Shown here: positions 27,496-58,243 of the stretch, piece after piece | Position numbering within the stretch: position 1 is the stretch's first letter | How the letters are laid out: each line of letters opens with the position of its first letter | Origin: Planctomycetota bacterium | Lineage (GTDB): Bacteria; Planctomycetota; Phycisphaerae; WQYP01 | Length of the DNA: 64,000 nucleotides | Assembly: GCA_021851715.1 (NCBI GenBank) | Contig: JAJZCR010000001.1 | Coordinates: 7,517 to 71,516 of the forward strand | Direction: 5' to 3' | Position numbers and translations under genes: made by a program | Notes under the pieces: model-generated | What the model saw: the letters and a program-made list of their open reading frames with translations, nothing else | Told to the model about the DNA's origin: nothing | Database searches by the model: none

Positions 27496-27581
27496 ATGTG
27501 CTACGGCCAGAAGAGGTTTGACGGCGGTATGGAATCGCCAAGCCACGTTTAGTTCGCAAATTTGTGCAAAGGGTACCGGTT

Positions 27582-30500
27582 ATGAGAAGGCTTTATTTAT
27601 CGGGTTGGATTGCGCCTATGGCGGCTTTGCTGGTAGCGGGCGCGGCGCAGGCCGCGGGGCCCAGCTTGCTGGACCGGCGCAACTTGAATGTGATGGGTTG
27701 CGCGGCGCCCAATATCCATTATGCCTTTGTAACGTCCAGCGAGCCTGGCAATGTTTTCTTTCCGGGTGATGCCGTCAATCTGCAGATACGGCTTTCGGCG
27801 GCGGGAAAGGGGAAGTTTCTGGAGTTTTCAATTGGCCGGATCGGCATGTACAAAAACCGGTATTGGCATCCCGGTTGGGCCAGCATGGTTCCCAGCGGCG
27901 TGCCGAAAATTGAGTTTCTGGGCTGGCGGGCGCATGTTCGTGTGGTGACCGGGGCGGCGGGCAAATTGGGTGCCGCGCTGGCTGCGTCTGGGCGAGGATA
28001 TCCCGCAGCTTCCGCGACTTACCTGAAGCCGGCTCCCGGAGGTGGGTCGATGTTGGAGGTGAGCCATTTGCCGGTGCCGGAACGGTATGGCTGCTACGTG
28101 ATAACTGTGGCACCGGATGGGAAAAATCCGCAATTTTTATGCACTGTGCTGCGGGCCCATCGGATTACGCCCGGGTTTAACACCGGTGCCCCGATTCTCA
28201 ACGAAGCGGCACTGATGACCCAGGGTGCCGATAACAATCCGGCCTTGTTGTTACGTGGTGCCCGGACGGCTTCGCGTCTGGGTCTGAAAATACTGCGTTT
28301 TGAGGCGCACTGGAGCAGTGTGGAACAGAAACGCGGGGTGTATAACTGGAGCAGTCTGGATCCGATGATGCACGCCATGGCCAAGGCCGGGGTGCGCACC
28401 ATGTGGACGGTGGACTGCGCGCCATTTTGGACCATGCCGTTTGATCAGCCCACGCCGGCCTGTATTCCCACCAAGGCGGATTGGTCTTGTGAACCGAAAT
28501 ATCTGCCGCTGTTTAAGAAATGGCTCAATGCCGCATGCCGGCGCTATTGGGATCATGGCCGGGGATCCTTGTGGGTGCTGGAAAACTGGAATGAGCCGTG
28601 GAATGGCATTTCCATCAGCGGTTGGGAAAGTGATATACCGCACTACCGGGCGATTATGCGAGTCATTGCAGCAGTGGCGCACGCCCAAAAGCCACCCATG
28701 AAAACTGCCGCCGCCGGTTGGATCGGCAACACGGAAAATATGTTTTTGACCGGCCGACACCCGGCCAAACAAATAAAAATGGTCGATATTTTCACGGATC
28801 ATTATGTGCAGCCGGATTTTTCCTACGGACCGATGGTGGCCCATTATTGGCAAAAACAAAGCATGGACACCGAAAGCTGGGTGGCCTGCAATGAAATGAT
28901 GCTGCCGCAGGTGATGACGCAGTTTATGGCCTGCGGCCAGGGACACGTGAATCCGTGTTATCCGGATTTTATTTATTTTAGCGCCCCCGGTTCACCCACC
29001 ACCTACACCATGCCCACACCGGTGGCATTGGCGTGCAATACATTCAGCTACTTTATTACCGACAAGCCATTTCGGCGGATGCTGTTTATGCATCATCTGC
29101 CGTTTGCCTTTGAGTTTGGAACAGATCCTCATGCGGTGGTGGTGCTGCTGGGGCGGCTGTTTACCCCGTTCGGCAATTCTTTGCGGTCGGTGCTGTGGTG
29201 GCAGTTTAACTTAACCCACGGTGGCACGATGAGCTTTAACAATGCCGATGGAGCCATCCATATTTATAATCTGGATGGCAACCGGGTTTTCATGCGTAAA
29301 AGAAGAGTCACCCTGCCCGTGACCACCCTGGCCTATTACCTGACGTGTCCCCAAGGGGGCGTGGAGCTGATTCGGCAGCGGCTGGCGGCGGCGAGGTACA
29401 AAGATGTGCGGCCGGTGGAAATCATTGCCCACGATTTTACCCAGTTTCTCAACCGTCCCGGAGCGCAACTGCACACCACGCTGCACAACCTGCTGCCGCG
29501 GAAAATCAGCGGTACGCTTAGCATTGTCGCCCCGGCGGGCATCAAGCTGGCCCAGGACCGGGTGCGGGTGGCGCTGAACCCGGGCCAATCGCTGGATGTG
29601 GCCGTGGCAGTCATTCAGGCGCGAATTGCCCGCACCAATGTTTATCCGTTTCGGTATGCATTTGCCAGCGCCGCCGGCCATGCCGGCTGGTCGGAAAATC
29701 TTCACGCGCTGGTGGCTGTGCATAAGACCATCAAGATCAACGGCGATTTAAGCCAGTGGAAGAGTATTCCTGGCGTGATGCACGGATGTGAGAAGGGGCA
29801 GGCCTGGTTTGCAAACCACCGTTGGCTGCCGTTTAGCCAGGAAGCGGCCAAATATCCGCATCAATTCTTCAGCCAGGTGAAACTGGCGTATGATTCCCGT
29901 TACTTTTATGTGTTGGCCCGTGTGAATGATGCGGTGGCCTATCCGGGACATCTACGGCTGGCCACGCGCAATGACGCGCAATATTTTCGCAGTGCCAAGG
30001 ATGACGTGTACTGCGAAAGCCTCAAGCCCTATGAAAAATTTATTCTTGCGGCCCCATGGAACACGCCGCTGGTCGTTCCTGCGGCACTGCAGCGCAATGC
30101 TCTGTTTGCAGCCTACGAAAAGTTTCTGGCTACCCATCGGCGGGCCAAAGCGGAAGTGGCCACAGGCGCTGCGGCAGTATTTTTCCGGGAGCGGAAAATC
30201 AACCCCCGCGCCACCTTTGCCGACGCCACATACGTTTATAAAAAGACTCCGCATGTGGATTTGCCATGGGTGGGCAACACTCTGCAATTTGCGCTGCACG
30301 TAATACCGGGTTACAACTCCCGGGATATGCGGTTGGATACAAAGCTGGTGCCCGCGGGTTTTCATGCCATGCCGGATACGGATTATGAATATGCGCTCTA
30401 TGCGTGCAAAGGCGGCGGCTCGGAATTGTGGCGGCTGCTGGCTCCCGGGGTGCCGCGGGGCTTTTATTGGCCCCGGCAGCCGCGGGCTAAGGTGGACCAA

Positions 30501-30791
30501 GGCCCGGTTGTCGGCAGCCTGCACCTGGTGAGGCACGATGGCAACATCACGATTTACGAAGCGGCGATTCCGTGGACAGAGCTTAGCCAATGGCATCCCC
30601 AGGCTGGTCGGACGTTTGGGTTTACGTTTATCGTCAATAGCTACCAGGGGCCGGACGCCGGTTTTGACAATCTCGCGGACGCCATTGCGTTCGGAGACAA
30701 CAAAAGCGCCACCAAACTCAACGGTCTGACGCTGCATCGCTATAACGAAGCCAAGCCGAGTTGTGCGGTACTCTGGGGACTGGTGAAATAA
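27582..30791 (+). CDS. Secreted large hydrolase, probably a clan GH-A-like glycoside hydrolase with extra C-terminal domains
   Basis: Signal peptide MRRLYLSGWIAPMAALLVAGAAQA. Central VLENWNEPWNG resembles the clan GH-A acid/base N-E-P strand. 1069 aa measured from ATG 27582. Confidence 0.55.
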   Translation: MRRLYLSGWIAPMAALLVAGAAQAAGPSLLDRRNLNVMGCAAPNIHYAFVTSSEPGNVFFPGDAVNLQIRLSAAGKGKFLEFSIGRIGMYKNRYWHPGWASMVPSGVPKIEFLGWRAHVRVVTGAAGKLGAALAASGRGYPAASATYLKPAPGGGSMLEVSHLPVPERYGCYVITVAPDGKNPQFLCTVLRAHRITPGFNTGAPILNEAALMTQGADNNPALLLRGARTASRLGLKILRFEAHWSSVEQKRGVYNWSSLDPMMHAMAKAGVRTMWTVDCAPFWTMPFDQPTPACIPTKADWSCEPKYLPLFKKWLNAACRRYWDHGRGSLWVLENWNEPWNGISISGWESDIPHYRAIMRVIAAVAHAQKPPMKTAAAGWIGNTENMFLTGRHPAKQIKMVDIFTDHYVQPDFSYGPMVAHYWQKQSMDTESWVACNEMMLPQVMTQFMACGQGHVNPCYPDFIYFSAPGSPTTYTMPTPVALACNTFSYFITDKPFRRMLFMHHLPFAFEFGTDPHAVVVLLGRLFTPFGNSLRSVLWWQFNLTHGGTMSFNNADGAIHIYNLDGNRVFMRKRRVTLPVTTLAYYLTCPQGGVELIRQRLAAARYKDVRPVEIIAHDFTQFLNRPGAQLHTTLHNLLPRKISGTLSIVAPAGIKLAQDRVRVALNPGQSLDVAVAVIQARIARTNVYPFRYAFASAAGHAGWSENLHALVAVHKTIKINGDLSQWKSIPGVMHGCEKGQAWFANHRWLPFSQEAAKYPHQFFSQVKLAYDSRYFYVLARVNDAVAYPGHLRLATRNDAQYFRSAKDDVYCESLKPYEKFILAAPWNTPLVVPAALQRNALFAAYEKFLATHRRAKAEVATGAAAVFFRERKINPRATFADATYVYKKTPHVDLPWVGNTLQFALHVIPGYNSRDMRLDTKLVPAGFHAMPDTDYEYALYACKGGGSELWRLLAPGVPRGFYWPRQPRAKVDQGPVVGSLHLVRHDGNITIYEAAIPWTELSQWHPQAGRTFGFTFIVNSYQGPDAGFDNLADAIAFGDNKSATKLNGLTLHRYNEAKPSCAVLWGLVK

Positions 30792-30867
30792 CGCGCGGTA
30801 ACCGCCGGGACAGCGGAGCCGCATGCGACATTATTTTTATATCTCGACGCAAGAAAGGGTTGAACCG

Positions 30868-31584
30868 ATGAATGCACTTTTTCCATCCACGTTGTCCCTG
30901 ATCATCATGCTGGCGGCCGGCGCATGGGCAGTGCCAGGGGCGGCGATGAACTCGCGGGTGCTGCCGTTGCGCATTGCCTGTGTGGGCGACAGTATCACGT
31001 GGGGGTACCATGTGCCGCACCGGTTGATCAATGCATATCCGGTGGTACTGCAGCGGCTGGTGGGACCGGCCTATGTGGTGCGGGGCTTTGGCCACAGCGG
31101 GGCCACCGCGTTAAGGCATCCCACGTGGAATGTTTCGTACTGGAACGTACCGGAATTTAAACAGGCCACGGCGTTTAAGCCTCATGTAGTGATTGTGATG
31201 CTGGGCACCAATGATTCCAACCATGGCAACCTGGCCGTGATGCGGCGGTATTTTAGTCGGGATTTTACTGCCCTGATCCGGCACTTTCAGAAGCTTTCCA
31301 CGCATCCGAAGGTTTTTATCTGTCTACCGCCATCACTGGGCGATGGAACCATCACCGGTCCGCAAGAGGCGGTGCCGAAAACCGGGGTGGCTCCGCGCAT
31401 TGTGGCGGTGGCCCGAAGGCTGCATCTGCCGCTGATCAATCTGCTCTACGCAATGGGCGGGCGGTGGAAGCTTTTTAATGCGGATCATATTCATCCCAAT
31501 ATCCAGGGTCAGAGAGTGCTGGCGCAGGTGGTCGATCATGCGCTGGTGAAGGCGGGGGTAGTTGTTGAGAGGACGCAGCAGTAA
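30868..31584 (+). CDS. SGNH/GDSL-family hydrolase (esterase/acetylesterase-like), secreted
   Basis: GDSITWG block I, GTND block III and DHIHPN block V. Signal peptide MNALFPSTLSLIIMLAAGAWAVPGAA. Confidence 0.75.
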   Translation: MNALFPSTLSLIIMLAAGAWAVPGAAMNSRVLPLRIACVGDSITWGYHVPHRLINAYPVVLQRLVGPAYVVRGFGHSGATALRHPTWNVSYWNVPEFKQATAFKPHVVIVMLGTNDSNHGNLAVMRRYFSRDFTALIRHFQKLSTHPKVFICLPPSLGDGTITGPQEAVPKTGVAPRIVAVARRLHLPLINLLYAMGGRWKLFNADHIHPNIQGQRVLAQVVDHALVKAGVVVERTQQ

Positions 31585-31661
31585 GCTGGCAGGGGTGCTG
31601 CAGGAGCCCGGATCCGGGAGCGACGGCGTGGAATCTTCCGACTACCGGGGCGGCGAGTATC

Positions 31662-32651
31662 CTACGACAGCCAATGCCGCAGGCGGCGTTTAAGCCTGTG
31701 CTGTAACCGGTGCAGGGTGCCGGGTACGGCCGGTATTTGCGAGATGTGCCGGCCGAGCTGAGTTTCCAGATCTTGGCAGTAACCAAGCAGTGGCGCAAAG
31801 TCCGCAAGTTCCCGCTGGATGAGAGTCCATGGTTCACGTATCAGCGCATCAGTCGGGTGCAGATGGTCGTCGGCCAGGGCGGTCAGCGATTCATAGGCCC
31901 GCCATACCACCGGCGGTACTGCCGGGTGATTTTGCAGGTCCTGCCGGGAGTGGATCGCATGACGCAGGTGCGCAGCCAGGAATTCCGCCGCGTAGGTATC
32001 CACCGCTTGAGCGACCGGGGGCGTCCAGGGCAAAGACAGGGAATTGGCCACGCGTTGCATCTGCCGGCGCGGGTCAGCCAGCAGGGCGTCGTAATTCACC
32101 ACCACGCAGGGGCGATCCCAGCTGCCGGTCAAGGCGGCGGCGTTGCGCAGCAACCAGAAGATGCAGGATCGGCGTACATCAAAGCCGGCGTCAATGCCAG
32201 CCAACGATGCCGCCACGCTCAGCGGATTGCGTACAGCCAGCACATAAGCATCCTGATAATGGTCCTGTCGCAGGAGGCCCTGCCAGAAGGGCAGGGTCAG
32301 GGTGGTCCGTGGATCCTTAAAGCCCCACAGGCGGCAGCGGCCATAGCGGTGGCGGATCAGTGATCGGGCTTGATCTTTTAAGGGCATAAGGGCGGGCAGG
32401 TTGAAGGTTGCGGGACTTACCAGGTTCAGGCTCATGTTGGATGAGCCTGCCACGGTCAGCACCGCATCATTGATCCGGCGCAAATCATCATCTTCAAAAT
32501 AGCCACGCGGATTTTCCTGCGGATCAGGCCGCACCAGATGATCACCGAGTTCAACGCCCAGCGCGGCTAATCCGCGGGCGATGGCGCTGGTGCCGCTGCG
32601 GCCGGCCCCCAGCACAAGAATAACACGCTGCACATCAGGTTGATCCATCAT
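31662..32651 (-). CDS. Sulfotransferase-family protein (P-loop PAPS-binding)
   Basis: 5'-PSB-like VLGAGRSGTS near the N-terminus and a 3'-PB-like VRNPLSVAAS. The start is taken as MMDQ at 32651. The ORF could extend to 32732, overlapping the upstream glycosyltransferase. Confidence 0.65.
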   Translation of the reverse strand: MMDQPDVQRVILVLGAGRSGTSAIARGLAALGVELGDHLVRPDPQENPRGYFEDDDLRRINDAVLTVAGSSNMSLNLVSPATFNLPALMPLKDQARSLIRHRYGRCRLWGFKDPRTTLTLPFWQGLLRQDHYQDAYVLAVRNPLSVAASLAGIDAGFDVRRSCIFWLLRNAAALTGSWDRPCVVVNYDALLADPRRQMQRVANSLSLPWTPPVAQAVDTYAAEFLAAHLRHAIHSRQDLQNHPAVPPVVWRAYESLTALADDHLHPTDALIREPWTLIQRELADFAPLLGYCQDLETQLGRHISQIPAVPGTLHRLQHRLKRRLRHWLS

Positions 32652-32671
32652 TTGTCCCGCTGGAAGTGTGT

Positions 32672-34660
32672 TTAATGCGGCTGGAGGCACGGTGTTCCGC
32701 GGCGGGTTGACCATTTGGCCCTGCGCAGACAATGTCGGCCACAGCCCAATTCCATGTCACCGGCCCGGACACAGGCCGGTCCGCCGAGCGGGCGGCTGAG
32801 GCAGGCGGCAAGAAGAATGAAAATGTACAGCGGCCAGCGGTGCCGGCGCAGCAGTCGGCGCAGGGCGCGAAACGGCCCGGTGATATTCCAGGAAATGGAT
32901 TGCTGCATGCGATTCACCACCTCCCAGGCCGCCGCCGCGGTATGAACGATGGGCCGGGCCTCCGACGGGTGCCCGCCGAGGCGGGCGGAAATGTCACGGA
33001 AGATACGTGTACTGCGCCAGGATGCGGATTGCCAGTGGCGGTCCACAAAGGCCTGGGGTGTCTGTGCCAGCCCGTGTGGCCATGGCAAGGCCGCGTCGCT
33101 TTGCCAGGTATGATACGTGCCGTGGGCGTAAAGCAGCAATTCGCGCAGCGGTGCGGGCGCAGCCTGCAGGTAGGGCTGAATGATACGCAGCCGGGCGGCA
33201 TGTGGATCGGTACTGCCGCACATGCCGGATGGGTTCATGCGATACCAGAAGAGCCGCCGGGGGATGGTCTGGAGATGAAAACCGCGCAGCACCGCCCTGG
33301 CAAAAAATTCCCAATCTTCAAACCCCACGCCGTAATCTTCGCCAAAACCGCCAAGTAATTCCATGGCCTGGCGCCGGATCAGGGCGTTGGCCGGCCCAAA
33401 CACATTACGAAAGGCACCGGCAGCCACCGCCGGCCCGAGAAACACTTGAATATTCCGCGGGGGCTGATTTTCCGCCGGTGGTTCCAGAGAGGAAAATCGT
33501 TCCATCGAGCAGGTTAAAATGTCCGCACCGGTGTGCCGGGCGACCCGCATAAACACGCTGATTTCATCGGATTGGGCCACATCGTCATCATCCATGAACA
33601 GCAGGTATTCGCCGCGGGCGGCCCGGGCGGCGGTATTGCGTGCCGCTCCCAGATAACGATTATTCTGGCGGATGATTTGCCAGTCCTTGACGGCGAATTC
33701 CGGCTCCAACGAGTTTAAAAAGCCGATTGCGGCGGGATCGGTACTGCCGTCATCACAAACAACCACCTCCAAATGCGGGTAATCCTGGTTGCGTATGGAT
33801 TCCAAAGCCCGGGCCAGAAGAAGTGGGCGATTAAAATGGCAGATACATACGCTTACCAGCGTTGCCGCGGCCTGGTCTTTGGGCGTGAAGGTCGAAACCG
33901 GGTCTGGGCATTTGGCCAGCAGACGATCGTGCCAGCGTAGCCATTGGGCAGTGCCGGCTGTTTGATCACAGGCCGGCTCAATCGTCACAGGGTCCGCATC
34001 CGGGGGCAGGTTCAGCCGGCCTGCCGCGGCCTGTGGTTGCGTGCTCCAGAGAGCATCGGCCATGGATACCATTTGCCGCTGCATGAAAGCGGCCTCAAGT
34101 TCCTCCACCTGATGTAAAAATGAAGGCTGGTCCGACCCTGCACGCGGGGCAGGATGGTCCAGGCCAACGACAAATCGGGTGTGCTGGAAGGCCCAGCCCT
34201 GATGTTTCGCCAGCATACTGTGGTAGCCCACTCCGGGCCACAGGGGCAGATGGACCAGGTTCAGGCGATCTTGTCGGCTAAGAAGAAACTGTAACAGGCG
34301 GTAGCTGGTTTGGGCCGGGCCGGCGGGTCCCACGCGCACTGCGGGCATATCCGGCAGTGCCGCAAAATCTATCCCCATGTTGCGATAGTGGTTGGTCCAG
34401 AACCGGATGGTTTGTGCCGGAGAGTGTGGACCGGGCAGATAAAGCACCTGCACATGATGGCCCGCCGCAGCCAGGGCGGCTGCCAGCGGGTCGGCGGAAT
34501 TGGCAGCAGACGCACCCGAACCGGCACCTGAGAGAACCGGCCGCAACAGGCAAATGTGAAGCGGGAGATTTGAGCTTAAAGCTCGGCCGGCAACCTGCGG
34601 TACGGCGAGAGCCGAATCGGCGGTGGCCCGGTTATATGTTTCGCCGACGGTTAAAGCCAT
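32672..34660 (-). CDS. Two-domain glycosyltransferase. The N-terminal half is GT-B Rossmann-like; the C-terminal half is family-2 (GT-A).
   Basis: VSVCICHFNRPLLLARALESIRNQDYPHLEVVVCDDGSTD and FMDDDD (DxD) match GT2. The N-terminal HICLL...AAALAAAGHHVQVL has a GT-B-like N-domain shape. Confidence 0.65.
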   Translation of the reverse strand: MALTVGETYNRATADSALAVPQVAGRALSSNLPLHICLLRPVLSGAGSGASAANSADPLAAALAAAGHHVQVLYLPGPHSPAQTIRFWTNHYRNMGIDFAALPDMPAVRVGPAGPAQTSYRLLQFLLSRQDRLNLVHLPLWPGVGYHSMLAKHQGWAFQHTRFVVGLDHPAPRAGSDQPSFLHQVEELEAAFMQRQMVSMADALWSTQPQAAAGRLNLPPDADPVTIEPACDQTAGTAQWLRWHDRLLAKCPDPVSTFTPKDQAAATLVSVCICHFNRPLLLARALESIRNQDYPHLEVVVCDDGSTDPAAIGFLNSLEPEFAVKDWQIIRQNNRYLGAARNTAARAARGEYLLFMDDDDVAQSDEISVFMRVARHTGADILTCSMERFSSLEPPAENQPPRNIQVFLGPAVAAGAFRNVFGPANALIRRQAMELLGGFGEDYGVGFEDWEFFARAVLRGFHLQTIPRRLFWYRMNPSGMCGSTDPHAARLRIIQPYLQAAPAPLRELLLYAHGTYHTWQSDAALPWPHGLAQTPQAFVDRHWQSASWRSTRIFRDISARLGGHPSEARPIVHTAAAAWEVVNRMQQSISWNITGPFRALRRLLRRHRWPLYIFILLAACLSRPLGGPACVRAGDMELGCGRHCLRRAKWSTRRGTPCLQPH

Positions 34661-34731
34661 TCGCCAACGGTCCTTTCTCTACTATTAAACGATTGATGCG
34701 GGCCGGGGTTGCAAAGGGGTGCGGCGCTTCA

Positions 34732-35172
34732 TCATTGGATCATGCGCAGCCACAGGGCGGTAGCCAAGCCCCAGATGATGTTAAGCAAGATGACAAACAA
34801 AAAGGTGGTGTGGCCGAAATCCATGCCCAGCCAGCCTTTGTGCATCCAAAAAGGGAAAACCACCAACAGGTCAAATGCGGCCGGCAGCAAGCCATACACC
34901 AGGCCGCGTTTGAAGGTGGAACCGGCCAGGAGCGGCAGCAAAAAGCACAGGCCGAAGATGCCGCCCCAGACCAGGTGCTGGTAAAACCGCCATTTATTAA
35001 AATCACCGGAAAGGCTGCAATGCAGCAAAGCAAAGAGATTCAATTTTCCGCAAAGCCAAGCCGCACCTGCATTGACCAGAGCGCCGAACATGCCGGCGGC
35101 AAAAGTCATGGAGATTTCGCGGGGCACGCTGCTGGAAGTACCGGCGGAGGCCATACAAACTCCTTGGGACAA
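34732..35172 (-). CDS. Small polytopic membrane protein, unknown function
   Basis: Four hydrophobic helices. It lies between xerC/D and the glycosyltransferase on the same strand with short gaps. Start is uncertain (alternative Met at 35154 or 35109). Confidence 0.4.
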   Translation of the reverse strand: MSQGVCMASAGTSSSVPREISMTFAAGMFGALVNAGAAWLCGKLNLFALLHCSLSGDFNKWRFYQHLVWGGIFGLCFLLPLLAGSTFKRGLVYGLLPAAFDLLVVFPFWMHKGWLGMDFGHTTFLFVILLNIIWGLATALWLRMIQ

Positions 35173-35211
35173 ACCCGACGGAGTATAGCATGGGCCGTGC
35201 GTGCCTTATTT

Positions 35212-36222
35212 TCAAGTGGCGCGTGGGTGGGCGCTTTCGTAGGCCTCGCGGATCCGGTGCGTGGTCAGGTGGGTGTAAATTTGCGTGGTGCTCAGACTCT
35301 GGTGGCCCAGCAATTCCTGCACCGACCGTAAATCCGCCCCATGGTTGAGCATGTGCGTGGCAAAGCTGTGCCGCAGCGTGTGCGGGCTGATATCCGGATC
35401 GAGGTGGGCTTCCAGCAGGTATTTATCCAACTTTCGCCGCACCGACCTGGTGCTTAATCGCTGGCCGTGCTTGTTAATGAACAGCGAAGAGACGGAACTG
35501 CCGGCGGGCACGGTAGAATTGCGCATGGGCATATATTTTTGAATGGCGTTCATGGCGGTCTGGCCGACGGGGTTCAGGCGTTCCTTTTTGCCTTTGCCGC
35601 GGACTTTGATGACATTGCCGGAAAAATCCACATCGTCGACATTAAGTCCCACCAGTTCGCTTACCCGCATGCCGGTGCTGTAAATGACTTCCAGCATGGC
35701 TTTATCGCGTGAACCAAGCAGGTCGGTATCTTTCGGGGTTTGCAGAAGCCGGTTGACCTGCTCTTCGGTCATAAATTTGGGCAGGCGTTTTTCCAGCTTC
35801 GGCGTGCGAATGGTGAGCATGGGGTTGTTGCCGGTGAGGCCGCGTTTGTTGAGGAATTTGAAAAAGCTGCGGAGGGTAGCCAGTTTTCTGGCCATGGTGG
35901 CTTTGGAATAATTCTGTTCGCGCATCTTCTGCAGGTAGTTGCGCACGTCATCAACATTGGCGTTCACCAGCAATTGATCGAGTTGCTCAGGCGAAGATTC
36001 GGTGGCCTGAGCCGCCGCGGCTGGAATGGCGGCCGGCGCTGATGCCGGCGAATTTCCCGTGCCATTTACCGCCGGTGTCGGGGCACCGGGATTAGCCAAA
36101 AAACCGCCGAATTGCTTGAGATCTGCGCCATAGCAGCGGCTGGTGTAGCTGGAAAAATGCCGTTCAAATTGCAGATAATTGAGAAAATCTTGAACCCGTG
36201 CTGGGAGAATGAAGGTTTCCAT
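35212..36222 (-). CDS. Tyrosine site-specific recombinase of the XerC/XerD type
   Basis: N-terminal LQFERHFSSYTSRCYGADL core-binding domain. The catalytic RHSFATHML...LGHQSLSTTQIYTH contains the R-H-R-Y residues. Start METFIL at 36222. Confidence 0.8.
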   Translation of the reverse strand: METFILPARVQDFLNYLQFERHFSSYTSRCYGADLKQFGGFLANPGAPTPAVNGTGNSPASAPAAIPAAAAQATESSPEQLDQLLVNANVDDVRNYLQKMREQNYSKATMARKLATLRSFFKFLNKRGLTGNNPMLTIRTPKLEKRLPKFMTEEQVNRLLQTPKDTDLLGSRDKAMLEVIYSTGMRVSELVGLNVDDVDFSGNVIKVRGKGKKERLNPVGQTAMNAIQKYMPMRNSTVPAGSSVSSLFINKHGQRLSTRSVRRKLDKYLLEAHLDPDISPHTLRHSFATHMLNHGADLRSVQELLGHQSLSTTQIYTHLTTHRIREAYESAHPRAT

Positions 36223-36813
36223 GATGAAATTACCGCCTCTATACCGGGGGACGTCATTTAGCCATTCCATAAGCCAGACAACGTCGCGCTACCGGCACGA
36301 CACAGGATGCCACCAGAGCGGCTTCCAGCCATCTCTGCCACGAAATCTCTCTTCGGCCATTTAGCGGCCGCACTTGCGGCCAAACTCATCGAAAAATCCC
36401 GCTCTGGGCATATTTGTTAAGCCCGGCCGGAATCCTTAAATTGCCGCTTGCCCCGAACACTTCTATCGGCTGTTTGGTTACGCGGACTGTACGTCGCGGA
36501 TGTTTTTGGAGCGGTGATTTTCGGGGCGGTAAAATTGGATAAAATGGGGGATTTGTATCGGACGGTGGGGGCCTATAACTTTAAGAGATAGGCCCGCAGG
36601 CTTGCAATTATTGTCCCAAGCGCCATAATCCGGTGTTTCGCGGTTGTCGCCGGACGTTGTCGGTGGTAACTGCGGTGACGGCAACGCCCAGGGCCGCCGG
36701 CCGCGACAGATATCGGACGGCAGCGCCCTGCAGGCAAGTCGGCGGTAACAGCGCTGATTCGCCGCCCGGGGCGGTGAATCCGGTGAAAATTTGAAGATTG
36801 GAAATAGCGGCGT

Positions 36814-53128: not shown

Positions 53129-53159
53129 TTGACTTCCTGCGTGCCCAGCGTCTATAATT
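53129..53159 (+). promoter_or_regulatory. Sigma-70-like promoter of the ars operon (TTGACT-N19-TATAAT)
   Basis: TTGACT at 53129-53134 and TATAAT at 53154-53159, about 57 bp upstream of the arsR ATG. Confidence 0.45.
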
Positions 53160-53192
53160 CGTCAATTGACGAAGTGTGGAAGTATTTTCCAC
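53158..53192. promoter_or_regulatory. Putative ArsR operator: perfect 16-bp palindrome TTCGTCAATTGACGAA plus adjacent GTGGAA-N5-TTCCAC
   Basis: Read directly. The palindrome overlaps the end of the -10 element and lies between the promoter and arsR. Confidence 0.5.
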
Positions 53193-53215
53193 GGGCACAG
53201 AGCACTGGAGCGGTC

Positions 53216-53587
53216 ATGATGATGCGTGAATTTATCCAAATGGCTGCGGCCCTTGCCGATCCGGCACGGGTGCGGGCATTGTTGGCGTTGCGCGATGGAG
53301 AATTGTGCCTGTGCCAAATTATTGACCTGCTGGGTTTGGCACCATCCACGGTTTCGCGTCATTTGAATCTGCTTTATCAGGCCAAATTGGTGGAACGGCG
53401 TAAGCAGGGACGATGGATGTATTTTACCCTGGCGGGTAAAGCCGCCTCGCCACCGGTGCAGCAGGCGATCGCCTGGGCCGGTGCCGCGCTGGCTGCGGAT
53501 GGCTTGATCAAACAGGACGCCCGGCGTGTGAAAAGCCTGTGCCGGCAGGACCTTGTGGAGCTTTGTGCATGTTATCGTCCAAGTTGA
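53216..53587 (+). CDS. arsR: ArsR/SmtB-family arsenite-responsive repressor
   Basis: ELCLCQI metal-binding motif inside the HTH (…LGLAPSTVSRHLNLLYQAKLV…). Confidence 0.85.
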   Translation: MMMREFIQMAAALADPARVRALLALRDGELCLCQIIDLLGLAPSTVSRHLNLLYQAKLVERRKQGRWMYFTLAGKAASPPVQQAIAWAGAALAADGLIKQDARRVKSLCRQDLVELCACYRPS

Positions 53588-54054
53588 AAATTCTGTTTTT
53601 ATGTACGGGTAATTCCTGCCGCAGTCAGATGGCTGAAGGCTGGGCCAGGGCCTTGAAAGGGGATGTTCTGGAACCGTATTCGGCGGGCATTGAAGTGCAC
53701 GGCTTAAATCCCACTGCGGTCAAGGTGATGGCAGAAGCAGGTGTGGATATCAGCGGGCACCGGTCCAAGATGGTGAGTGAATTGAGGGATGTTTCTTTTG
53801 ACGCGGTGATTACCGTGTGCGGCCACGCCCACGAAACCTGCCCCGCCTGGCTGGATAAAAAAAGTACGCTGCGGCACGTGGGCTTTGATGACCCTCCCAA
53901 GTTGGCCAAAACCGCCAAAACCCCTGAGGAAGCATTGGGCCATTACCGGCGTGTACGTGATGAGATTCGGGCATTTGTACAAACGCTGCCGGAATCACTT
54001 GGCAAAAATGTTTTATCGGCGCAGGCCGGGGCTGGTGAAGGGAGCCGACGATGA
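53569..54054 (+). CDS. arsC: Arsenate reductase, thioredoxin-coupled LMW-PTP type
   Basis: CTGNSCRS P-loop and downstream Cys pair in VITVCGHAHETCP. It overlaps arsR by 19 nt. Confidence 0.85.
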   Translation: MLSSKLKILFLCTGNSCRSQMAEGWARALKGDVLEPYSAGIEVHGLNPTAVKVMAEAGVDISGHRSKMVSELRDVSFDAVITVCGHAHETCPAWLDKKSTLRHVGFDDPPKLAKTAKTPEEALGHYRRVRDEIRAFVQTLPESLGKNVLSAQAGAGEGSRR

Positions 54055-54146
54055 AAGGTGTGTTCGCAGTATCTGATGCCGCCATGTGCTGTTCCACCGG
54101 CGTATGCGGGCCGGAGGCAGGCAAATCCGGAATGCAGGGCCTGTGA
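54051..54146 (+). CDS. 31-codon ORF encoding an ArsD-like N-terminal head (arsD remnant or mini-ArsD)
   Basis: MKGVFAVSDAAMCCSTGVCGPEAGKSGMQGL*. The first 20 residues match the ArsD N-terminus (MKTLMVFDPAMCCSTGVCG), including Cys12-Cys13-Cys18. There is an ATGA overlap with the arsC stop and a GGAG 6 nt upstream. Confidence 0.4.
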   Translation: MKGVFAVSDAAMCCSTGVCGPEAGKSGMQGL

Positions 54147-54207
54147 CGGAAAAGATCCTGGAGTCCTGGCGGTTGGCGTAAGCGGATCATAAAAAAGAAG
54201 CGCGAAC

Positions 54208-55380
54208 ATGTCACGGGTATTCAAAAAACTTTCGGTTCTCGACCGCTTTCTGACGCTGTGGATTTTCGCAGCCATGGGGGTGGGCATCGGGGTGGGATAT
54301 TTATGGAAGGGCTTGCCGCGGGTGATGGGGCATTTTGAGTTCGGCACCACCAACCTGCTTCTGGCCGCGGGCCTGATTTTGATGATGTATCCGCCGCTGG
54401 CCAAAGTCCGCTATGAAGAACTGGGTAAGGTATTTGGCAACGTCCGGGTGCTGGGGCTTTCGTTGCTGCAAAATTGGGTGATCGGCCCGATGGTGATGTT
54501 TGCCCTGGCGGCCCTGTTTTTACATGGCCATCCGATGTTTATGATCGGGCTGATTTTGATTGGTCTGGCCCGCTGCATCGCCATGGTGATTGTGTGGAAC
54601 GAGTTGGCACGCGGCGATACGGATTACGCCGCGGGTTTGGTGGCATTTAACAGTGTTTTTCAGGTGGTTTTTTACAGCTTGTATGCTTGGCTGTTTATTA
54701 AGGTGCTGCCGCCGCTGGTGGGGTTGCACTTTCCGGCGGTGAACCTGGCGGAAATTTCCATGGTAAGCATCGCCCGGAGCGTCTTTATTTATCTGGGTAT
54801 TCCATTTTTAGCTGGTCTGGTGACGAGAATGGTGCTGATACGTGCCTGCGGTAAGCCTTGGTATGAACAGCACTTTATCCCGCGCATCAGCCCCATAACC
54901 CTGGTGGCGCTGCTGTTTACCATTGTGGTGATGTTTGCGTATCAGGGTCGGCAGATCATAGGGGAGCCTGGTTCGGTAGTACTGATAGCGATACCCTTGC
55001 TGATTTATTTTGTGGTAATGTTTTTGATCAGTTTTTGGATGGGGCGTCGGATCGGGGCTGATTACGCCCAAACTGCGACCATTTCGTTCACGGCCGCCAG
55101 CAATAATTTTGAGCTGGCCATTGCCGTGGCGGTGGCGCTGTTTGGCGTGGCCAGCCCGGTGGCATTTACGGCGGTCATCGGCCCGTTGGTGGAAGTGCCG
55201 GTGATGATTGGTCTGGTGACTGTAGCACTGTATTTTCAGCGGCGTTATTTTGGCCGGACGGTGAGCAATGGCTTGCCCTCACCAGGCGCAGCAGCCTGCC
55301 CCACCTTCATTCCTACCGGTGTGGGAGGCGGGAGTGCTATTTCCGAACAAGGGGCCGGCTTGGGTCATAAGGAGTCTTAG
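54208..55380 (+). CDS. acr3: ACR3-family arsenite efflux permease
   Basis: 390 aa with 10 transmembrane helices and ACR3 signature regions (…MYPPLAKV…, …CIAMVIVWN…). Confidence 0.9.
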
Positions 55381-56468: not shown

Positions 56469-57149
56469 TCAAATAAGCTCCAGAAGCTTCTTGATTGGCG
56501 CAAGGCCGGAATGGTCTGCATTCCATAGCCCTGCTTTTGCGCTTTCGCCAAGCGTTTGCTCAGGCTTGGCTGACGCGGCAATTAAACTGTGCACTTTAAC
56601 CTTCGCTTTCCAGTTGTTGATCGCCGAGGAATCCCGGCGGTCTGGCTGCTGCAAACACGACATAAATCTCTCTACGCATTCCGGAGGCTGATTTCCCGCA
56701 TATGCCTCCAAAAGCATATCCTCTATACATCCAGATTCCTTTTCGTGGGGCACAATCAGGTAGGCTGTGTTGGGGCCACCGGCAGGACCCGGTGATGCGG
56801 GCTTCAGAGGTGCCTGTGGAACGGCGAGGCCCGCGGCTCGAAAGGCCGCTGATAGTGATCGAGCAGTTCCTGTTTTGTCACCCTCCGCATCATAAATCGC
56901 CCCAACCGCTTTCACATGTTCGCGGAAACCAGACGTACGAACAAGGACGTCAAACGCCGATTGCATGTCATCACGGCCACCACCATTTAAAACCCATATC
57001 TGTCGGGTTTGCAGCAATTTCGGGAATAGTCCGCGTATAAGGAACTCGAGGTTTTTGCCTTCGACTATCACAATCGCCCGTGTCTCCGGCGAGGGCTTAA
57101 AGCCTCCTGCGGAAACCGCAGCCGCGGTCCTGGCACCAGATAGGGCCAT
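56469..57149 (-). CDS. DUF4276-family (TOPRIM/OLD-nuclease-like) protein, partner of the upstream ATPase
   Basis: N-terminal AIVIVEGKNLEFLIRGLFPKLL (VEG-x-E signature), an acidic cluster YDAEGD, and a later CIEDMLLEAY. Its ATG overlaps the ATPase stop. Confidence 0.55.
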   Translation of the reverse strand: MALSGARTAAAVSAGGFKPSPETRAIVIVEGKNLEFLIRGLFPKLLQTRQIWVLNGGGRDDMQSAFDVLVRTSGFREHVKAVGAIYDAEGDKTGTARSLSAAFRAAGLAVPQAPLKPASPGPAGGPNTAYLIVPHEKESGCIEDMLLEAYAGNQPPECVERFMSCLQQPDRRDSSAINNWKAKVKVHSLIAASAKPEQTLGESAKAGLWNADHSGLAPIKKLLELI

Positions 57150-58243
57150 CAACGCACCTCAACGTCTATCTTTTCGGCTGTGCGCAACATCTCTGTGTCG
57201 TAACGTGTCGGCTCAACGTTACCATCTACCTGGCGGTCAAGCCGAAATATGGCCACATCGTTTGTGCCTTCCGGAAAGGCCTTGACCAAAGCTCGGAGCA
57301 TCTCTTCATTATGGGTTGAGCAAAATAGCTGCACCTTACATTGACTGCACATTGCGGCAACACCCTGCCAGAAGCCCGGCATCGTAGAATAATGGAGGCC
57401 AGAATCAATTTCGTCCACGATGACCATCTTGGCATTGCGGCCAGCTAAACCAGTTGCGATCAGGCAAATGCGGCAAAAGCCATCTCCCAAAAGCTGAATC
57501 GGCATGCGGCGCAATTGCTCGCCCAAATCGGCCAACACAGCAGTCTGGCCGCCACGCACTCCCGCCCACAGCCCCCGCACTTTCGGGTTGACAGTGCGCA
57601 ATAGTTCGTAAAGCATCTCCTCGAGCCTTTCCTGCGCCAGGTCGGTAAGAACATTTGCTGTCTCGTTGAGGCTTGTTGCCCTCCTCGCATGCACATAAAA
57701 GGCTCCCGGATCACCGCTTGCAACCAGGAACGGCGGCTGCGGTTGAAGAAGGCCTTGCGGCGTCAAAATGGCACGCATGTTGTCGCCGGTTGTTCTGGGC
57801 AGGATGCGGTAGAGCACGCCGCCTATGCGGTCTTCGCCAGTTGTAGCCGGTGGGCCGGGCTCAAAGATGTCGCCCGGCTTTTGTTCATCCTGACCGCCCA
57901 CGGCAGGAATGGTTCCGTAATCACCGAAAATCGCTGATATCTCCAGCCCGCGCTCTCCATGTTCGCCAGTGGCACCCAACGAAATCCGTACCCTTGGATC
58001 CAGATTGAAAAAAAAGCAGCGCAAGGGCACATCGAATTGCGGCGAAGCCCTCGGCTGATCACGCCAGGCCGCCAGGTTCAACAATAGTTGCGGGGCCGCC
58101 CTATTCCCCAGAATCATCAGCGATTCCAGCAGCGATGTTTTTCCGCAGCCGTTTTCACCAATGAAGATATTGAGGCGTGCCAACCCGTCAATCTTAAGCG
58201 ATTTTATGCCTCGAAAATTTTGTACCCGAATTTGAGAAAACAT
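57149..58243 (-). CDS. AAA_21/ABC-type ATPase (OLD / AriA / PtuA / AbiLi-like)
   Basis: N-terminal IRVQNFRGIKSLKIDGLARLNIFIGENGCGKTSLLESL (Walker A). C-terminal MVIVDEIDSGLH (Walker B / D-loop) and CSTHNEEML (H-loop). It lacks ABC transporter partners or an ABC-signature transporter context. Confidence 0.75.
   Translation of the reverse strand: MFSQIRVQNFRGIKSLKIDGLARLNIFIGENGCGKTSLLESLMILGNRAAPQLLLNLAAWRDQPRASPQFDVPLRCFFFNLDPRVRISLGATGEHGERGLEISAIFGDYGTIPAVGGQDEQKPGDIFEPGPPATTGEDRIGGVLYRILPRTTGDNMRAILTPQGLLQPQPPFLVASGDPGAFYVHARRATSLNETANVLTDLAQERLEEMLYELLRTVNPKVRGLWAGVRGGQTAVLADLGEQLRRMPIQLLGDGFCRICLIATGLAGRNAKMVIVDEIDSGLHYSTMPGFWQGVAAMCSQCKVQLFCSTHNEEMLRALVKAFPEGTNDVAIFRLDRQVDGNVEPTRYDTEMLRTAEKIDVEVR

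Follow-up and report, generated by a model that had tools for sequence, protein, structure and literature searches.

The enzymes that sulfate glycans in bacteria have been little characterised. According to one paper, no prokaryotic sulfotransferase that acts on glycosaminoglycans is known (PMC7356697), the sulfotransferase of the Cobetia marina capsule was assigned from the genome (PMC11766843), and Planctomycetota are noted more for the large number of their sulfatase genes (PMC6388578). The ABC-transporter-dependent sulfated capsule of C. marina KMM 1449 (Rha2S) is encoded with sulfotransferase (ST), glycosyltransferase (GT) and PAPS genes (PMC11766843). In this capsule cluster, in that of Vibrio sp. 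KMM 8419 and in the putative sulfated-GAG cluster of Pontiella, a cytoplasmic ST of the PF13469 type or related to it lies beside GT2 and GT4 enzymes (PMC11766843, PMC11641403, PMC7356697), as at the locus described here, and PAPS-dependent glycan sulfation before export is likewise predicted. The likeness drawn here is one of gene content, and these clusters comprise tens of genes, including transporter, precursor and PAPS genes, whereas the locus described here is an isolated two-gene unit.

In E. coli O9a and in Klebsiella O12, Wzt recognises a terminal cap, which is methyl/phosphomethyl in the case of WbdD and beta-Kdo in that of WbbB. It is the C-terminal domain of Wzt that recognises the cap in characterised systems (PMC9445017).

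Here we describe a GT gene followed by an ST gene within a 64-kb stretch of planctomycetal DNA (the window). To judge from their sequences, the two plausibly constitute a sulfated-glycan biosynthesis module for the cell envelope, as a split and trimmed version of a widespread protein family.

Layout and boundaries of the locus

An earlier note on this DNA had described three minus-strand ORFs, for a small membrane protein, a GT and an ST, that lie downstream of xerC/D and converge on an SGNH hydrolase and a large secreted protein. All three ORFs were present as it had described them, and the surrounding layout was confirmed (Table 1). Neither the hydrolase nor the 1075-aa protein, which had no above-threshold Pfam match and no PDB sequence match, adjoins the GT-ST pair in the relatives L004, L090 and L093, and both were rejected as members of the locus.

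Table 1. Features of the locus, with positions in the window
Feature	Position	Strand	Remarks
1075-aa signal-peptide protein	27564-30791	+	converges on the minus-strand genes
SGNH/GDSL hydrolase	30823-31584	+	converges on the minus-strand genes
ST ORF	31662-32732	-	356 aa as longest ORF, TTG start
ST gene	31662..32648	-	328 aa from ATG 32648; alternative ATG 32651
GT-ST intergenic spacer	32649..32671	-	20-23 nt; GGGA 6 nt before first ATG
GT gene	32672..34660	-	662 aa: half-GT4, GT2, helical C-terminal region, tail
GT tail (aa 611-662)	32675..32830	-	poorly conserved; only in window protein and its ortholog at locus L094
GT helical region (aa 481-610)	32831..33220	-	two SW..(T/R)..(P)..R motifs: SWRSTRIFR, SWNITGPFR
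GT2 (GT-A) catalytic domain (aa 269-480)	33221..33856	-	PF00535 (Glycos_transf_2), E=4e-26
Half-GT4 domain (aa 34-250)	33911..34561	-	single Rossmann, N-terminal (acceptor-side) half of GT4
Small membrane protein ORF	34732-35172	-	146 aa as longest ORF
xerC	35212-36270		upstream of the three ORFs; TIGR02224, 345 bits

The small membrane protein, which would have 140 aa if ATG 35154 (with AAGGAG 5 nt upstream) is its start, had been counted as part of the same locus. No homolog of it was found in the 498 nt that precede the orthologous GT gene at L094 or across all 80 ST loci fetched, and its homologs (61% and 46-50% identity) sit in unrelated contexts in Phycisphaerae and Desulfomonile. Co-conservation of a three-gene locus thus fails, and synteny rules the membrane protein out as part of the GT-ST system.

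The overlap of the GT and ST genes that had been reported arises only with the TTG start at 32732 and is an artefact of choosing the longest ORF. The GT stop codon is TAA 32674-32672, and the conserved ST start (ATG 32651/32648, giving MMDQP/MDQP), which is the one used in public gene calls and in all homologs, comes 20-23 nt later. The 28-codon N-terminal extension from the TTG is without conservation and is broken by in-frame stops in the orthologs L094/L095 and L004. Thus, the TTG was rejected as the start, and the real junction is a spacer, comparable to the 22-29 nt at the orthologous junctions.

A scan of positions 31400-36800 found promoter and terminator sites to be no more numerous than in shuffled sequence. 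Pfam scans of 36 ORFs, which left out about 17 shorter ones (90-257 aa, from a greedy ORF call), revealed no PAPS, exporter (Wzm/Wzt, Wzx/Wzy), or nucleotide-sugar and other precursor genes in the window, and neither the permease nor the ATPase that, encoded with GTs, define a Wzm/Wzt pathway was among them.

The predicted sulfotransferase

The 328-aa protein is predicted from its sequence and model to be a PAPS-type sulfotransferase of the Sulfotransfer_3/TPST-like kind, which agrees with the earlier identification from the GAGRSGTS and RNP motifs. Residues 38-238 of the 356-aa ORF matched Pfam Sulfotransfer_3 (PF13469) over profile positions 2-216 of 216, with 32.7 bits against a gathering cutoff of 27. 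The protein has a 5'-PSB motif (GAGRSGTS, aa 14-21), an FKDPR motif with K111, a 3'-PB motif (RNPLSVAAS, R140...S148) and long C-terminal helices (aa 268-327). In the family alignment G31, E52, K111, R140, N141, P142 and S148 are invariant; among 32 homologs R17-S18-G19-T20-S21 are invariant or nearly so, and R140 and S148 are invariant.

The AF2 model (pLDDT 88.4, pTM 0.85) was compared with the PDB by Foldseek, and 50 of the 50 listed matches were PAPS sulfotransferases (probability 1.00, TM 0.32-0.52). The best were tyrosylprotein sulfotransferases (TPSTs), with moderate TM scores of 0.45-0.5, so structure by itself leaves room for a non-carbohydrate acceptor. The top sequence matches were the ST domains of CurM and OLS, and RNPLSVAAS aligns with VRHPYSVIES in the 3'-PB region of CurM ST. 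A close kinship with NodH was rejected because no match to nodH-bearing Sinorhizobium plasmids was obtained at E<=1e-3 (PLSDB).

The predicted glycosyltransferase

The 662-aa protein is predicted, from sequence and model alike, to be a glycosyltransferase with an intact inverting GT2 (GT-A) domain. In 42 homologs D303/D304 (DDGS), DDD 357-359 (DxD), E441 and D449 of this domain are invariant, and E448 and E451 are nearly so (90% or more). Its pLDDT is mostly above 95, and its sequence and fold matches include K4 chondroitin polymerase, PglI/AvpGT and heparosan synthase 2, with E-values of about 1e-13 for the GT-A fold matches.

The earlier description of a "GT-B-like plus GT2" enzyme holds for the GT2 part, but of the GT-B part only the N-terminal half is present. 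This half gave only sub-threshold matches to PF13439 and PF13579, and the AF2 model has one Rossmann domain ahead of GT2 rather than the two of GT4 (GT-B) enzymes, which include a Glycos_transf_1 donor-binding domain with the EX7E region. Homologs of about 770 aa are full GT4-GT2 fusions with the C-terminal Glycos_transf_1 half, and the alignment has a clean gap in the window protein at the place of the ELVFFGRLExRKG...PSLxEN domain of six homologs (P0123, P0127, P0130, P0132, P0176 and P0144). The donor-binding half of GT4 has therefore been deleted from the 662-aa protein.

The helical region that follows GT2 is common to the whole GT4-GT2 family and to the linkers of ST-multiGT fusions. The strict form of its motif, [ST]SW..T.P[LM]R, occurs in 8 of 37 fusions and 8 of 42 GTs; it is thus a recurrent and not a defining feature, and was rejected as a universal family marker. 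The tail (pLDDT <50) has a borderline hydrophobic stretch at aa 613-631 (WPLYIFILLAACL, Kyte-Doolittle 1.7), which may serve as a membrane anchor. No signal peptide was detected in the GT or the ST and no TM segment in the ST, and the two products are predicted to be cytoplasmic.

Relative to L094, dN/dS is 0.24 for the half-GT4, 0.20 for GT2, 0.24 for the helical region and 0.20-0.24 for the ST, and all retained GT domains and the ST are under purifying selection (dN/dS 0.20-0.24 over dS of 0.6-1.0). The tail has a dN/dS of 0.70, and the GT termini overall are under relaxed selection (about 0.7).

Conservation of the pair and of its family

The conserved unit consists of two genes, GT then ST. 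This order is found in four Planctomycetota lineages, that of the window included, with differing flanks, and the orthologous pairs have ST/GT identities of 84/88%, 72/68% and 74/78%. At L094, a 662-aa GT ortholog (68% identical) with the same architecture lies directly before the ST, and the same gene order occurs in six Binatia-type loci. An IS insertion in the FK5.bin10 lineage truncates the GT at aa 314 and leaves the ST intact; the ST may thus not strictly need this GT. The half-GT4 plus GT2 architecture recurs independently in P0168, which is inside a large intact glycan cluster, and in P0175.

At E<=1e-30 the ST family falls into 1,012 clusters, and GTDB species representatives encode it at no fewer than 556 loci. 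Of the 80 family loci that were fetched, 37 have the ST fused to GT domains, as the N-terminal domain of a multi-GT protein of 600-1800 aa in which GT2 (20/37), GT4-type (15/37), RgpF and WbsX domains recur. The view that bacterial STs are seldom coupled to GTs is wrong at the level of sequence, and such coupling is not rare in genomes. Two single-chain ST-GT4-GT2 proteins, P0191 and P0151, are homologous to both window proteins. The searchable literature yielded no biochemically characterised protein from this ST subfamily or from the GT4-GT2 family.

The neighbours of family STs are dominated by GTs, Wzm/Wzt and dTDP-rhamnose genes. Immediate neighbours included APS kinase (3 of 71 upstream, 4 of 68 downstream), two ATP sulfurylases and two CysQ-like proteins, and a Pfam scan of 110 neighbouring proteins at eight loci with Wzt_C found four APS kinases. 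At L014, a GT_C-like match lies just downstream of an ST. Given that the GT and the ST are kept as a pair in relatives and are fused in other organisms, a biosynthetic and not a catabolic role in making a sulfated glycoconjugate, as the earlier note had suggested, is the best reading. Of the two findings that the note had named as refuting it, absence of ST fold similarity in the 356-aa protein and absence of co-conservation in related genomes, neither was obtained for the GT and the ST.

Proposed function

The best explanation overall, which we hold to be probable, is sugar transfer by GT2 followed by PAPS-dependent sulfation of an envelope glycan by the ST before export. At the cytoplasmic membrane face the GT2 domain, with a nucleotide sugar as donor, would glycosylate an envelope glycan or a glycolipid, and the ST would then O-sulfate that glycan with PAPS, ahead of export. 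The half-GT4, unable to bind a donor, is probably kept for acceptor binding, membrane binding or scaffolding, while the helical C-terminal regions of the GT and the ST may keep the enzymes in contact, in place of the covalent link of the ST-GT4-GT2 fusions. What we infer here is the order of the reactions, the physical interaction of GT and ST, the nature of acceptor and sugar, and what the half-GT4 does.

A special case of this explanation, rather than an alternative to it, would be that GT2 puts the last sugar on an ABC-transporter-dependent glycan and the ST sulfates this non-reducing end, which would halt elongation and flag the chain for export. Such a cap would be analogous to those of WbdD and WbbB. 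In its favour, the N-terminal position of the ST on a multi-GT protein in 37 of 80 loci resembles the layout of WbbB, in two members the ST is followed by coiled-coil-type Pfam matches (SlyX, ATG16), ABC ATPases make up 14 of 71 upstream neighbours, with 10 of them being Wzt proteins with the C-terminal carbohydrate-binding domain (Wzt_C), and in Pseudomonas sputi the gene order is Wzm-Wzt(CBM)-ST-fusion. We nevertheless regard such capping as unlikely. Methyltransferases encoded in the same Wzt_C clusters (five proteins across the eight loci) could supply the cap, the Wzt of the Wzm/Wzt genes beside the closest GT4-GT2 plus ST pair, in Binatia, is without a CBM, the 64-kb window has no Wzt gene, and the sulfated ABC-dependent capsule of C. 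marina bears sulfate on every repeat and not at the terminus (PMC11766843). Nor did the searchable literature yield a paper on the ST-multiGT fusion family, on sulfate as an O-antigen or chain terminator, or tying sulfation to chain termination. A broader form of the idea, that the whole ST family makes a previously unrecognised glycan cap, with terminal sulfation ending the chain and marking it for Wzm/Wzt export, and that the window pair is a minimal split capping module whose dead half-GT4 attaches to the acceptor chain or to a polymerase as partner, is in our judgement quite unlikely.

The pair might instead be what decay has left of an earlier ST-GT4-GT2 polysaccharide system, with no product made any longer; the lost donor-binding half, the IS-truncated GT of FK5.bin10, the isolation from export and precursor genes and the relaxed selection on the GT termini speak for this. 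Low dN/dS in every retained domain and in the ST, intact GT2 and ST catalytic residues, the identical 662-aa architecture in a 68%-identical ortholog, and the independent recurrence of half-GT4 plus GT2, once within an intact glycan cluster, make decay very unlikely; moreover, pathway genes in Planctomycetota are usually scattered. There is a similarly slim chance that the acceptor of the ST is not a carbohydrate but either a protein tyrosine, as with RaxST and TPSTs, or a lipid or polyketide hydroxyl, as with CurM ST, and that the adjacent GT is incidental or the product a glycopeptide or glycolipid. The TPST fold matches, the CurM/OLS sequence matches and a Salinisphaera ST homolog among lipid-A-type genes (LpxL-like, LpxO-like, MsbA-like) point this way, while the recurrent fusions to GT2, GT4, RgpF and WbsX domains, the glycan-type neighbours and the lack of precursor-peptide or PKS genes nearby argue against it, and, with no match to the nodH-bearing plasmids at E<=1e-3, the ST is not closely related to NodH either.

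Sulfation of an envelope glycan thus remains the explanation that we prefer. The finding in itself is a routine annotation refinement and not a surprise, but the pair is a small and tractable example from an ST plus GT family that is very large and uncharacterised. Provided that they are expressed, the two soluble proteins could serve as a simple in vitro system in which to define acceptor and regiochemistry for the family, and could show whether a half GT-B acts as a non-catalytic acceptor-binding module; they would also add evidence that Planctomycetota make sulfated glycans.

Comparison with known systems

The GT2 modules of E. coli K4 chondroitin polymerase and Pasteurella heparosan synthase, soluble or peripheral GT-A enzymes that act on growing glycan chains, are, among solved structures, the best matches of the GT2 domain in sequence and fold (E=4e-25). 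Identity is about 16-21%, the window protein combines a single GT-A module with a dead half GT-B, and the matches point to no particular sugar. For the ST, the closest solved structures are TPSTs and the ST domains of CurM and OLS, with which it shares the fold, the GxxRSGT(S/T) 5'-PSB (Arg for Lys) and the R-x7-S 3'-PB. Identity is 16-18% at TM 0.45-0.5, and the genomic context of the window ST points to carbohydrate and not to peptide or acyl acceptors.

NodH, which has been assigned to PF13469 (PMC11625862), Stf0, LpsS and KpsS are likewise PAPS-dependent sulfotransferases for sugars of envelope or signal glycoconjugates, but none of them is fused to a glycosyltransferase, and Stf1 is only a distant fold match to the window ST. 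WbbB (Klebsiella O12) and WbdD (E. coli O9a) resemble relatives of the pair within the family in having an N-terminal modifying domain on a polymerase-type multi-GT protein, beside Wzm and a CBM-bearing Wzt. They differ in that GT99 and the WbdD kinase/methyltransferase are not homologous to these proteins, in that the group would be sulfate instead of Kdo or methyl phosphate, and in that the window is without Wzm/Wzt.

The ST-GT4-GT2 and ST-multiGT fusions, such as P0191, P0151 and the 1000-1800-aa proteins of Pseudomonas, Massilia and Marinobacter, are homologous to both window proteins, with 31-33% identity in the ST, 43-46% over a segment spanning GT2, and a common SW..T.PLR helical linker motif. 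In contrast to these fusions, the window version is divided between two genes whose order is reversed, with the GT ahead of the ST, and the donor-binding half of GT4 has been lost from it.

Layout of the locus and the GT/ST junction

The earlier note had proposed a candidate sulfated glycoconjugate locus; its observation was confirmed in part and its interpretation was supported in part. Three consecutive minus-strand ORFs were indeed present at 31662-35172, encoding a small membrane protein, a glycosyltransferase (GT) and a sulfotransferase (ST), with xerC upstream and genes for an SGNH hydrolase and a 1075-aa protein convergent on them. The small membrane protein likely starts at ATG 35154, with AAGGAG 5 nt upstream, which gives 140 aa. 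The GT and ST genes, however, do not overlap as the note had read them. That overlap depends on TTG 32732, while the public gene call for ST is a 328-aa protein from ATG 32648 (P0001, 100% identical) and the alignment of ST homologs begins at MDQP in all of them. The 28-codon extension from TTG is unconserved and is broken by in-frame stops in the orthologs at L094/L095 and L004, by which TTG 32732 was ruled out as the ST start. Thus, the real junction is a spacer of 20-23 nt past the GT stop codon (TAA 32674-32672).

Features of the window discussed in the text
Feature	Coordinates	Strand	Remark
Arsenic-resistance-type operon	53129-55380	+	
ATPase and DUF3226 genes	56469-58243	-	
xerC	35212-36270	-	upstream of the three ORFs; TIGR02224, 345 bits
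Small membrane protein ORF	34732-35172	-	longest ORF, 146 aa
GT ORF	32672-34660	-	662 aa
ST longest ORF	31662-32732	-	356 aa from TTG
SGNH/GDSL hydrolase	30823-31584	+	converges on the minus-strand ORFs
1075-aa signal-peptide protein	27564-30791	+	converges on the minus-strand ORFs

The sulfotransferase

The ST clears the gathering threshold of Pfam Sulfotransfer_3 (32.7 vs. 27 bits). Across 32 aligned homologs, E52, K111 (FKDPR) and the 3'-phosphate-binding R140-N-P...S148 are all invariant, and the 5'-phosphosulfate-binding loop G-x-x-R17-S-G-T-S is fully or almost fully conserved. A profile search of the PDB aligned the RNPLSVAAS region with VRHPYSVIES of the CurM and olefin-synthase sulfotransferase domains. 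AlphaFold gave a confident model (pLDDT 88.4, pTM 0.85), and all 50 of the 50 PDB fold matches listed are PAPS-dependent sulfotransferases (probability 1.00, TM 0.32-0.52), including TPST1/2, the CurM sulfotransferase, cytosolic SULTs and Stf1 of M. tuberculosis. Sequence prediction found neither a signal peptide nor a transmembrane segment. The Pfam score, motifs and fold matches thus agree on the sulfotransferase identity, and the reading does not fall for want of fold similarity.

The glycosyltransferase

Residues 269-480 of GT form a GT2 (GT-A) domain (PF00535, E=4e-26), in which D303/D304, DDD 357-359, E441 and D449 are invariant among 42 homologs and the predicted model has pLDDT mostly above 95. 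Among solved structures, it is best matched by K4 chondroitin polymerase, PglI/AvpGT and heparosan synthase 2. Residues 34-250 gave only sub-threshold matches to the GT4 N-domain. Typical members of the GT4-GT2 family, of ~770 aa, have a complete GT4 (Glyco_transf_4 plus Glycos_transf_1) followed by GT2 and a helical C-terminus. In our alignment of these homologs, the donor-binding domain Glycos_transf_1 is a single clean gap in four proteins (the window GT, its 68%-identical L094 ortholog, P0168 and P0175), while the other aligned proteins carry it; in the predicted GT model, one Rossmann domain precedes GT2. The gap and the single Rossmann domain show that the part described earlier as GT-B-like is half a GT-B fold, for which conventional GT4 catalysis is not possible. 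The proposed fusion of a GT-B-like domain with GT2 therefore stands for GT2 and only for half of GT-B.

Comparison of the window GT with its L094 ortholog gave dN/dS values of 0.24 for the half-GT4 domain, 0.20 for GT2 and 0.24 for the helical region (aa 481-610), and of 0.67 and 0.70 for the first 33 and the last 52 residues, respectively. At 0.24, the half-GT4 domain is not junk. Within the tail, whose predicted structure is of low confidence, lies a single borderline hydrophobic stretch (aa 613-631). We noticed that the motif [ST]SW[RKNE]x[TL]xP[LM]R is present two times toward the C-terminus in many members of the GT4-GT2 family (window 32831-33220, GT aa 481-610) and also ~60-100 aa past the ST domain in several fusions of ST with multiple GTs. 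No Pfam family covers the motif, which may be the signature of a helical module for docking or membrane binding.

Conservation of the GT-ST pair

The order GT then ST is found in an identical public contig and in orthologous pairs with ST/GT identities of 84/88% (L090), 72/68% (L094, L095) and 74/78% (L004-L010, Planctomycetota MAG FK5.bin10). The flanks vary: in L004 they comprise an insertion sequence (IS) and a GH35 gene, and the downstream genes of L090 and L093 are different. In six Binatia-type loci, a full GT4-GT2 homolog directly precedes a family ST; divergent Wzm/Wzt, another ST and a methyltransferase are encoded there as well. The proteins P0191 (1131 aa) and P0151 (1146 aa) combine ST-GT4-GT2 in a single chain, with parts homologous to both window proteins. 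Given this recurrence of the pair and of the fusions, the reading is not undone by an absence of GT/ST co-conservation.

The window pair has its most complete relative in a Binatia-type MAG (L022:6004-13959), in which a full GT4-GT2 homolog precedes two Sulfotransfer_3 genes in tandem and a methyltransferase gene, and Wzm and a Wzt that lacks the CBM are encoded divergently on the upstream side; the arrangement is similar in L017, L021, L023 and L032. In the FK5.bin10 lineage (L004:82-2216, also L005-L010), an IS with HTH and DDE_3 transposase genes lies directly upstream of the GT ortholog, which starts at the equivalent of aa 314 and lacks the GT2 start. The adjacent ST is intact (dN/dS 0.23 vs. 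the window ST), and this state is seen in 17 contigs from several samples.

The wider sulfotransferase family

The ST family is large: at E<=1e-3, an exhaustive HMMER scan gave 18,276 cluster representatives, a number that falls to 10,895 at E<=1e-10 and to 1,012 at E<=1e-30. Among the best 150 representatives, 62 exceed 600 aa in length, with the ST N-terminal in 61 of these. At least 556 loci of GTDB species representatives encode an ST relative, and in 37 of 80 fetched loci the ST is fused to multi-GT proteins, with GT2 in 20, GT4-type domains in 15, WbsX in 9 and RgpF in 9. At the sequence level, the earlier view that bacteria seldom couple an ST to a GT thus fails. The immediate upstream neighbors (n=71) include ABC ATPases (14, of which 10 have the Wzt C-terminal carbohydrate-binding domain), GT4 (9), GT2 (7), RmlC (5), APS kinase (3) and ATP sulfurylase (2); downstream are GT2 (9), GT4 (6), a second ST (6), APS kinase (4) and CysQ-like proteins (2). 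The gene order in Pseudomonas sputi is GT2, Wzm, Wzt(CBM), ST-RgpF-WbsX. Culturable relatives in which an ST-multiGT fusion neighbors a CBM-bearing Wzt include P. sputi BML-PP014, Massilia eburnea and Pseudomonas koreensis B1M1-15. These neighbors and fusions place the family mainly in ABC-transporter-dependent synthesis of envelope polysaccharides, tied to PAPS supply.

Sulfated ABC-dependent capsules with ST, GT and PAPS genes have been described in structure and genomics (PMC11766843, PMC11641403), and in a PVC bacterium the synthesis of sulfated GAG-like polymers was proposed for PF13469 STs encoded beside GT2/GT4 genes (PMC7356697). Searches of the available literature turned up no biochemical work on this ST subfamily or on ST-GT fusions; the ST-GT family is very common yet experimentally untouched. 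Cereibacter sphaeroides 2.4.1, a model organism, could serve as a tractable system: its plasmid pA (67365-86045) encodes an ST of 36% identity, in whose vicinity lie genes for a GH99-like/WbsX-type protein, another sulfotransferase and ABC-transporter/sugar-transporter functions. In Salinisphaera sp. LB1 (CP029488.1, 2529626-2550642), a 39%-identical homolog lies among genes for an LpxL-like acyltransferase, two ELM1-like proteins, an LpxO-like hydroxylase and an MsbA-like ABC transporter, a context that suggests lipid A or core sulfation.

Neighboring genes and the rest of the window

None of the ortholog loci described above yielded a homolog of xerC, of the SGNH hydrolase, of the 1075-aa protein or of the small membrane protein. 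The last of these (34732-35154 from its likely start) is one of a family whose members, of ~135 aa, have 3-4 predicted transmembrane segments and no Pfam match, with 74 cluster representatives in Phycisphaerae, Desulfomonile, Thermodesulfobacteriota and Geobacterales. Its homologs in Phycisphaerae (61% identity) and Desulfomonile (46-50%) have unrelated neighborhoods, and no conserved neighborhood was seen for the family; on this synteny the protein is not part of the coupled unit. The 1075-aa protein, with its N-terminal signal peptide, had no Pfam match above threshold, only a sub-threshold CBM9 match, and no PDB sequence match, so that its "GH-like" label is unsupported.

Pfam scans of 36 window ORFs, with ~17 shorter ones (90-257 aa, greedy ORF call) left out, detected no cysC/N/D, Wzm/Wzt, Wzx/Wzy or nucleotide-sugar genes. 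This absence is weak evidence because pathway genes are commonly scattered in Planctomycetota. XerC has 352 aa against the 295 positions of its TIGR02224 profile, and an Ala/Pro-rich low-complexity insertion of ~50 aa (around aa 55-100) splits its N-terminal SAM-like domain. The arsenic-resistance-type operon encodes an ArsR-family HTH protein, a low-molecular-weight phosphatase (ArsC-like) and an SBF/Acr3-type permease. The genes for an AAA_15/AAA_21 ATPase (364 aa) and, next in order, a DUF3226 protein (227 aa) resemble a two-gene defense-type module.

Proposed mechanism

The identities of the domains, the selection on them, the co-conservation of the pair and the contexts of the family are established by the analysis; for the order of reactions, the substrates and the GT-ST interaction, we infer a three-step model, which is the best supported and which we regard as fairly likely. 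The GT2 domain, cytoplasmic and membrane-peripheral, would attach a sugar to an envelope glycan, lipid-linked or of another kind, and the ST would then sulfate the GT2 product using PAPS. The half-GT4 domain and helical C-termini would bind the acceptor or the membrane and possibly hold GT and ST together, an association that would stand in for the covalent link of the ST-GT fusion proteins.

On a less likely reading, suggested by the WbbB/WbdD-like layout and by the CBM-bearing Wzt neighbors, the sulfate would be a cap that terminates chain growth; methyltransferases within the same clusters weaken this suggestion, as do the sulfates of the Cobetia capsule, which are internal. That the ST acts on a non-carbohydrate acceptor, also less likely, is favored by its fold similarity to TPST and CurM and by the lipid-A-type context in Salinisphaera, but the dominant GT fusions in the ST family speak against it. 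The view that the pair is a decaying remnant is contradicted by the dN/dS values and by the intact catalytic residues.

The window pair is plausibly a new representative of an established type of system, glycan biosynthesis with PAPS-dependent sulfation. Compared with the ST-GT4-GT2 fusions and the full GT4-GT2 homologs, it is split and trimmed.
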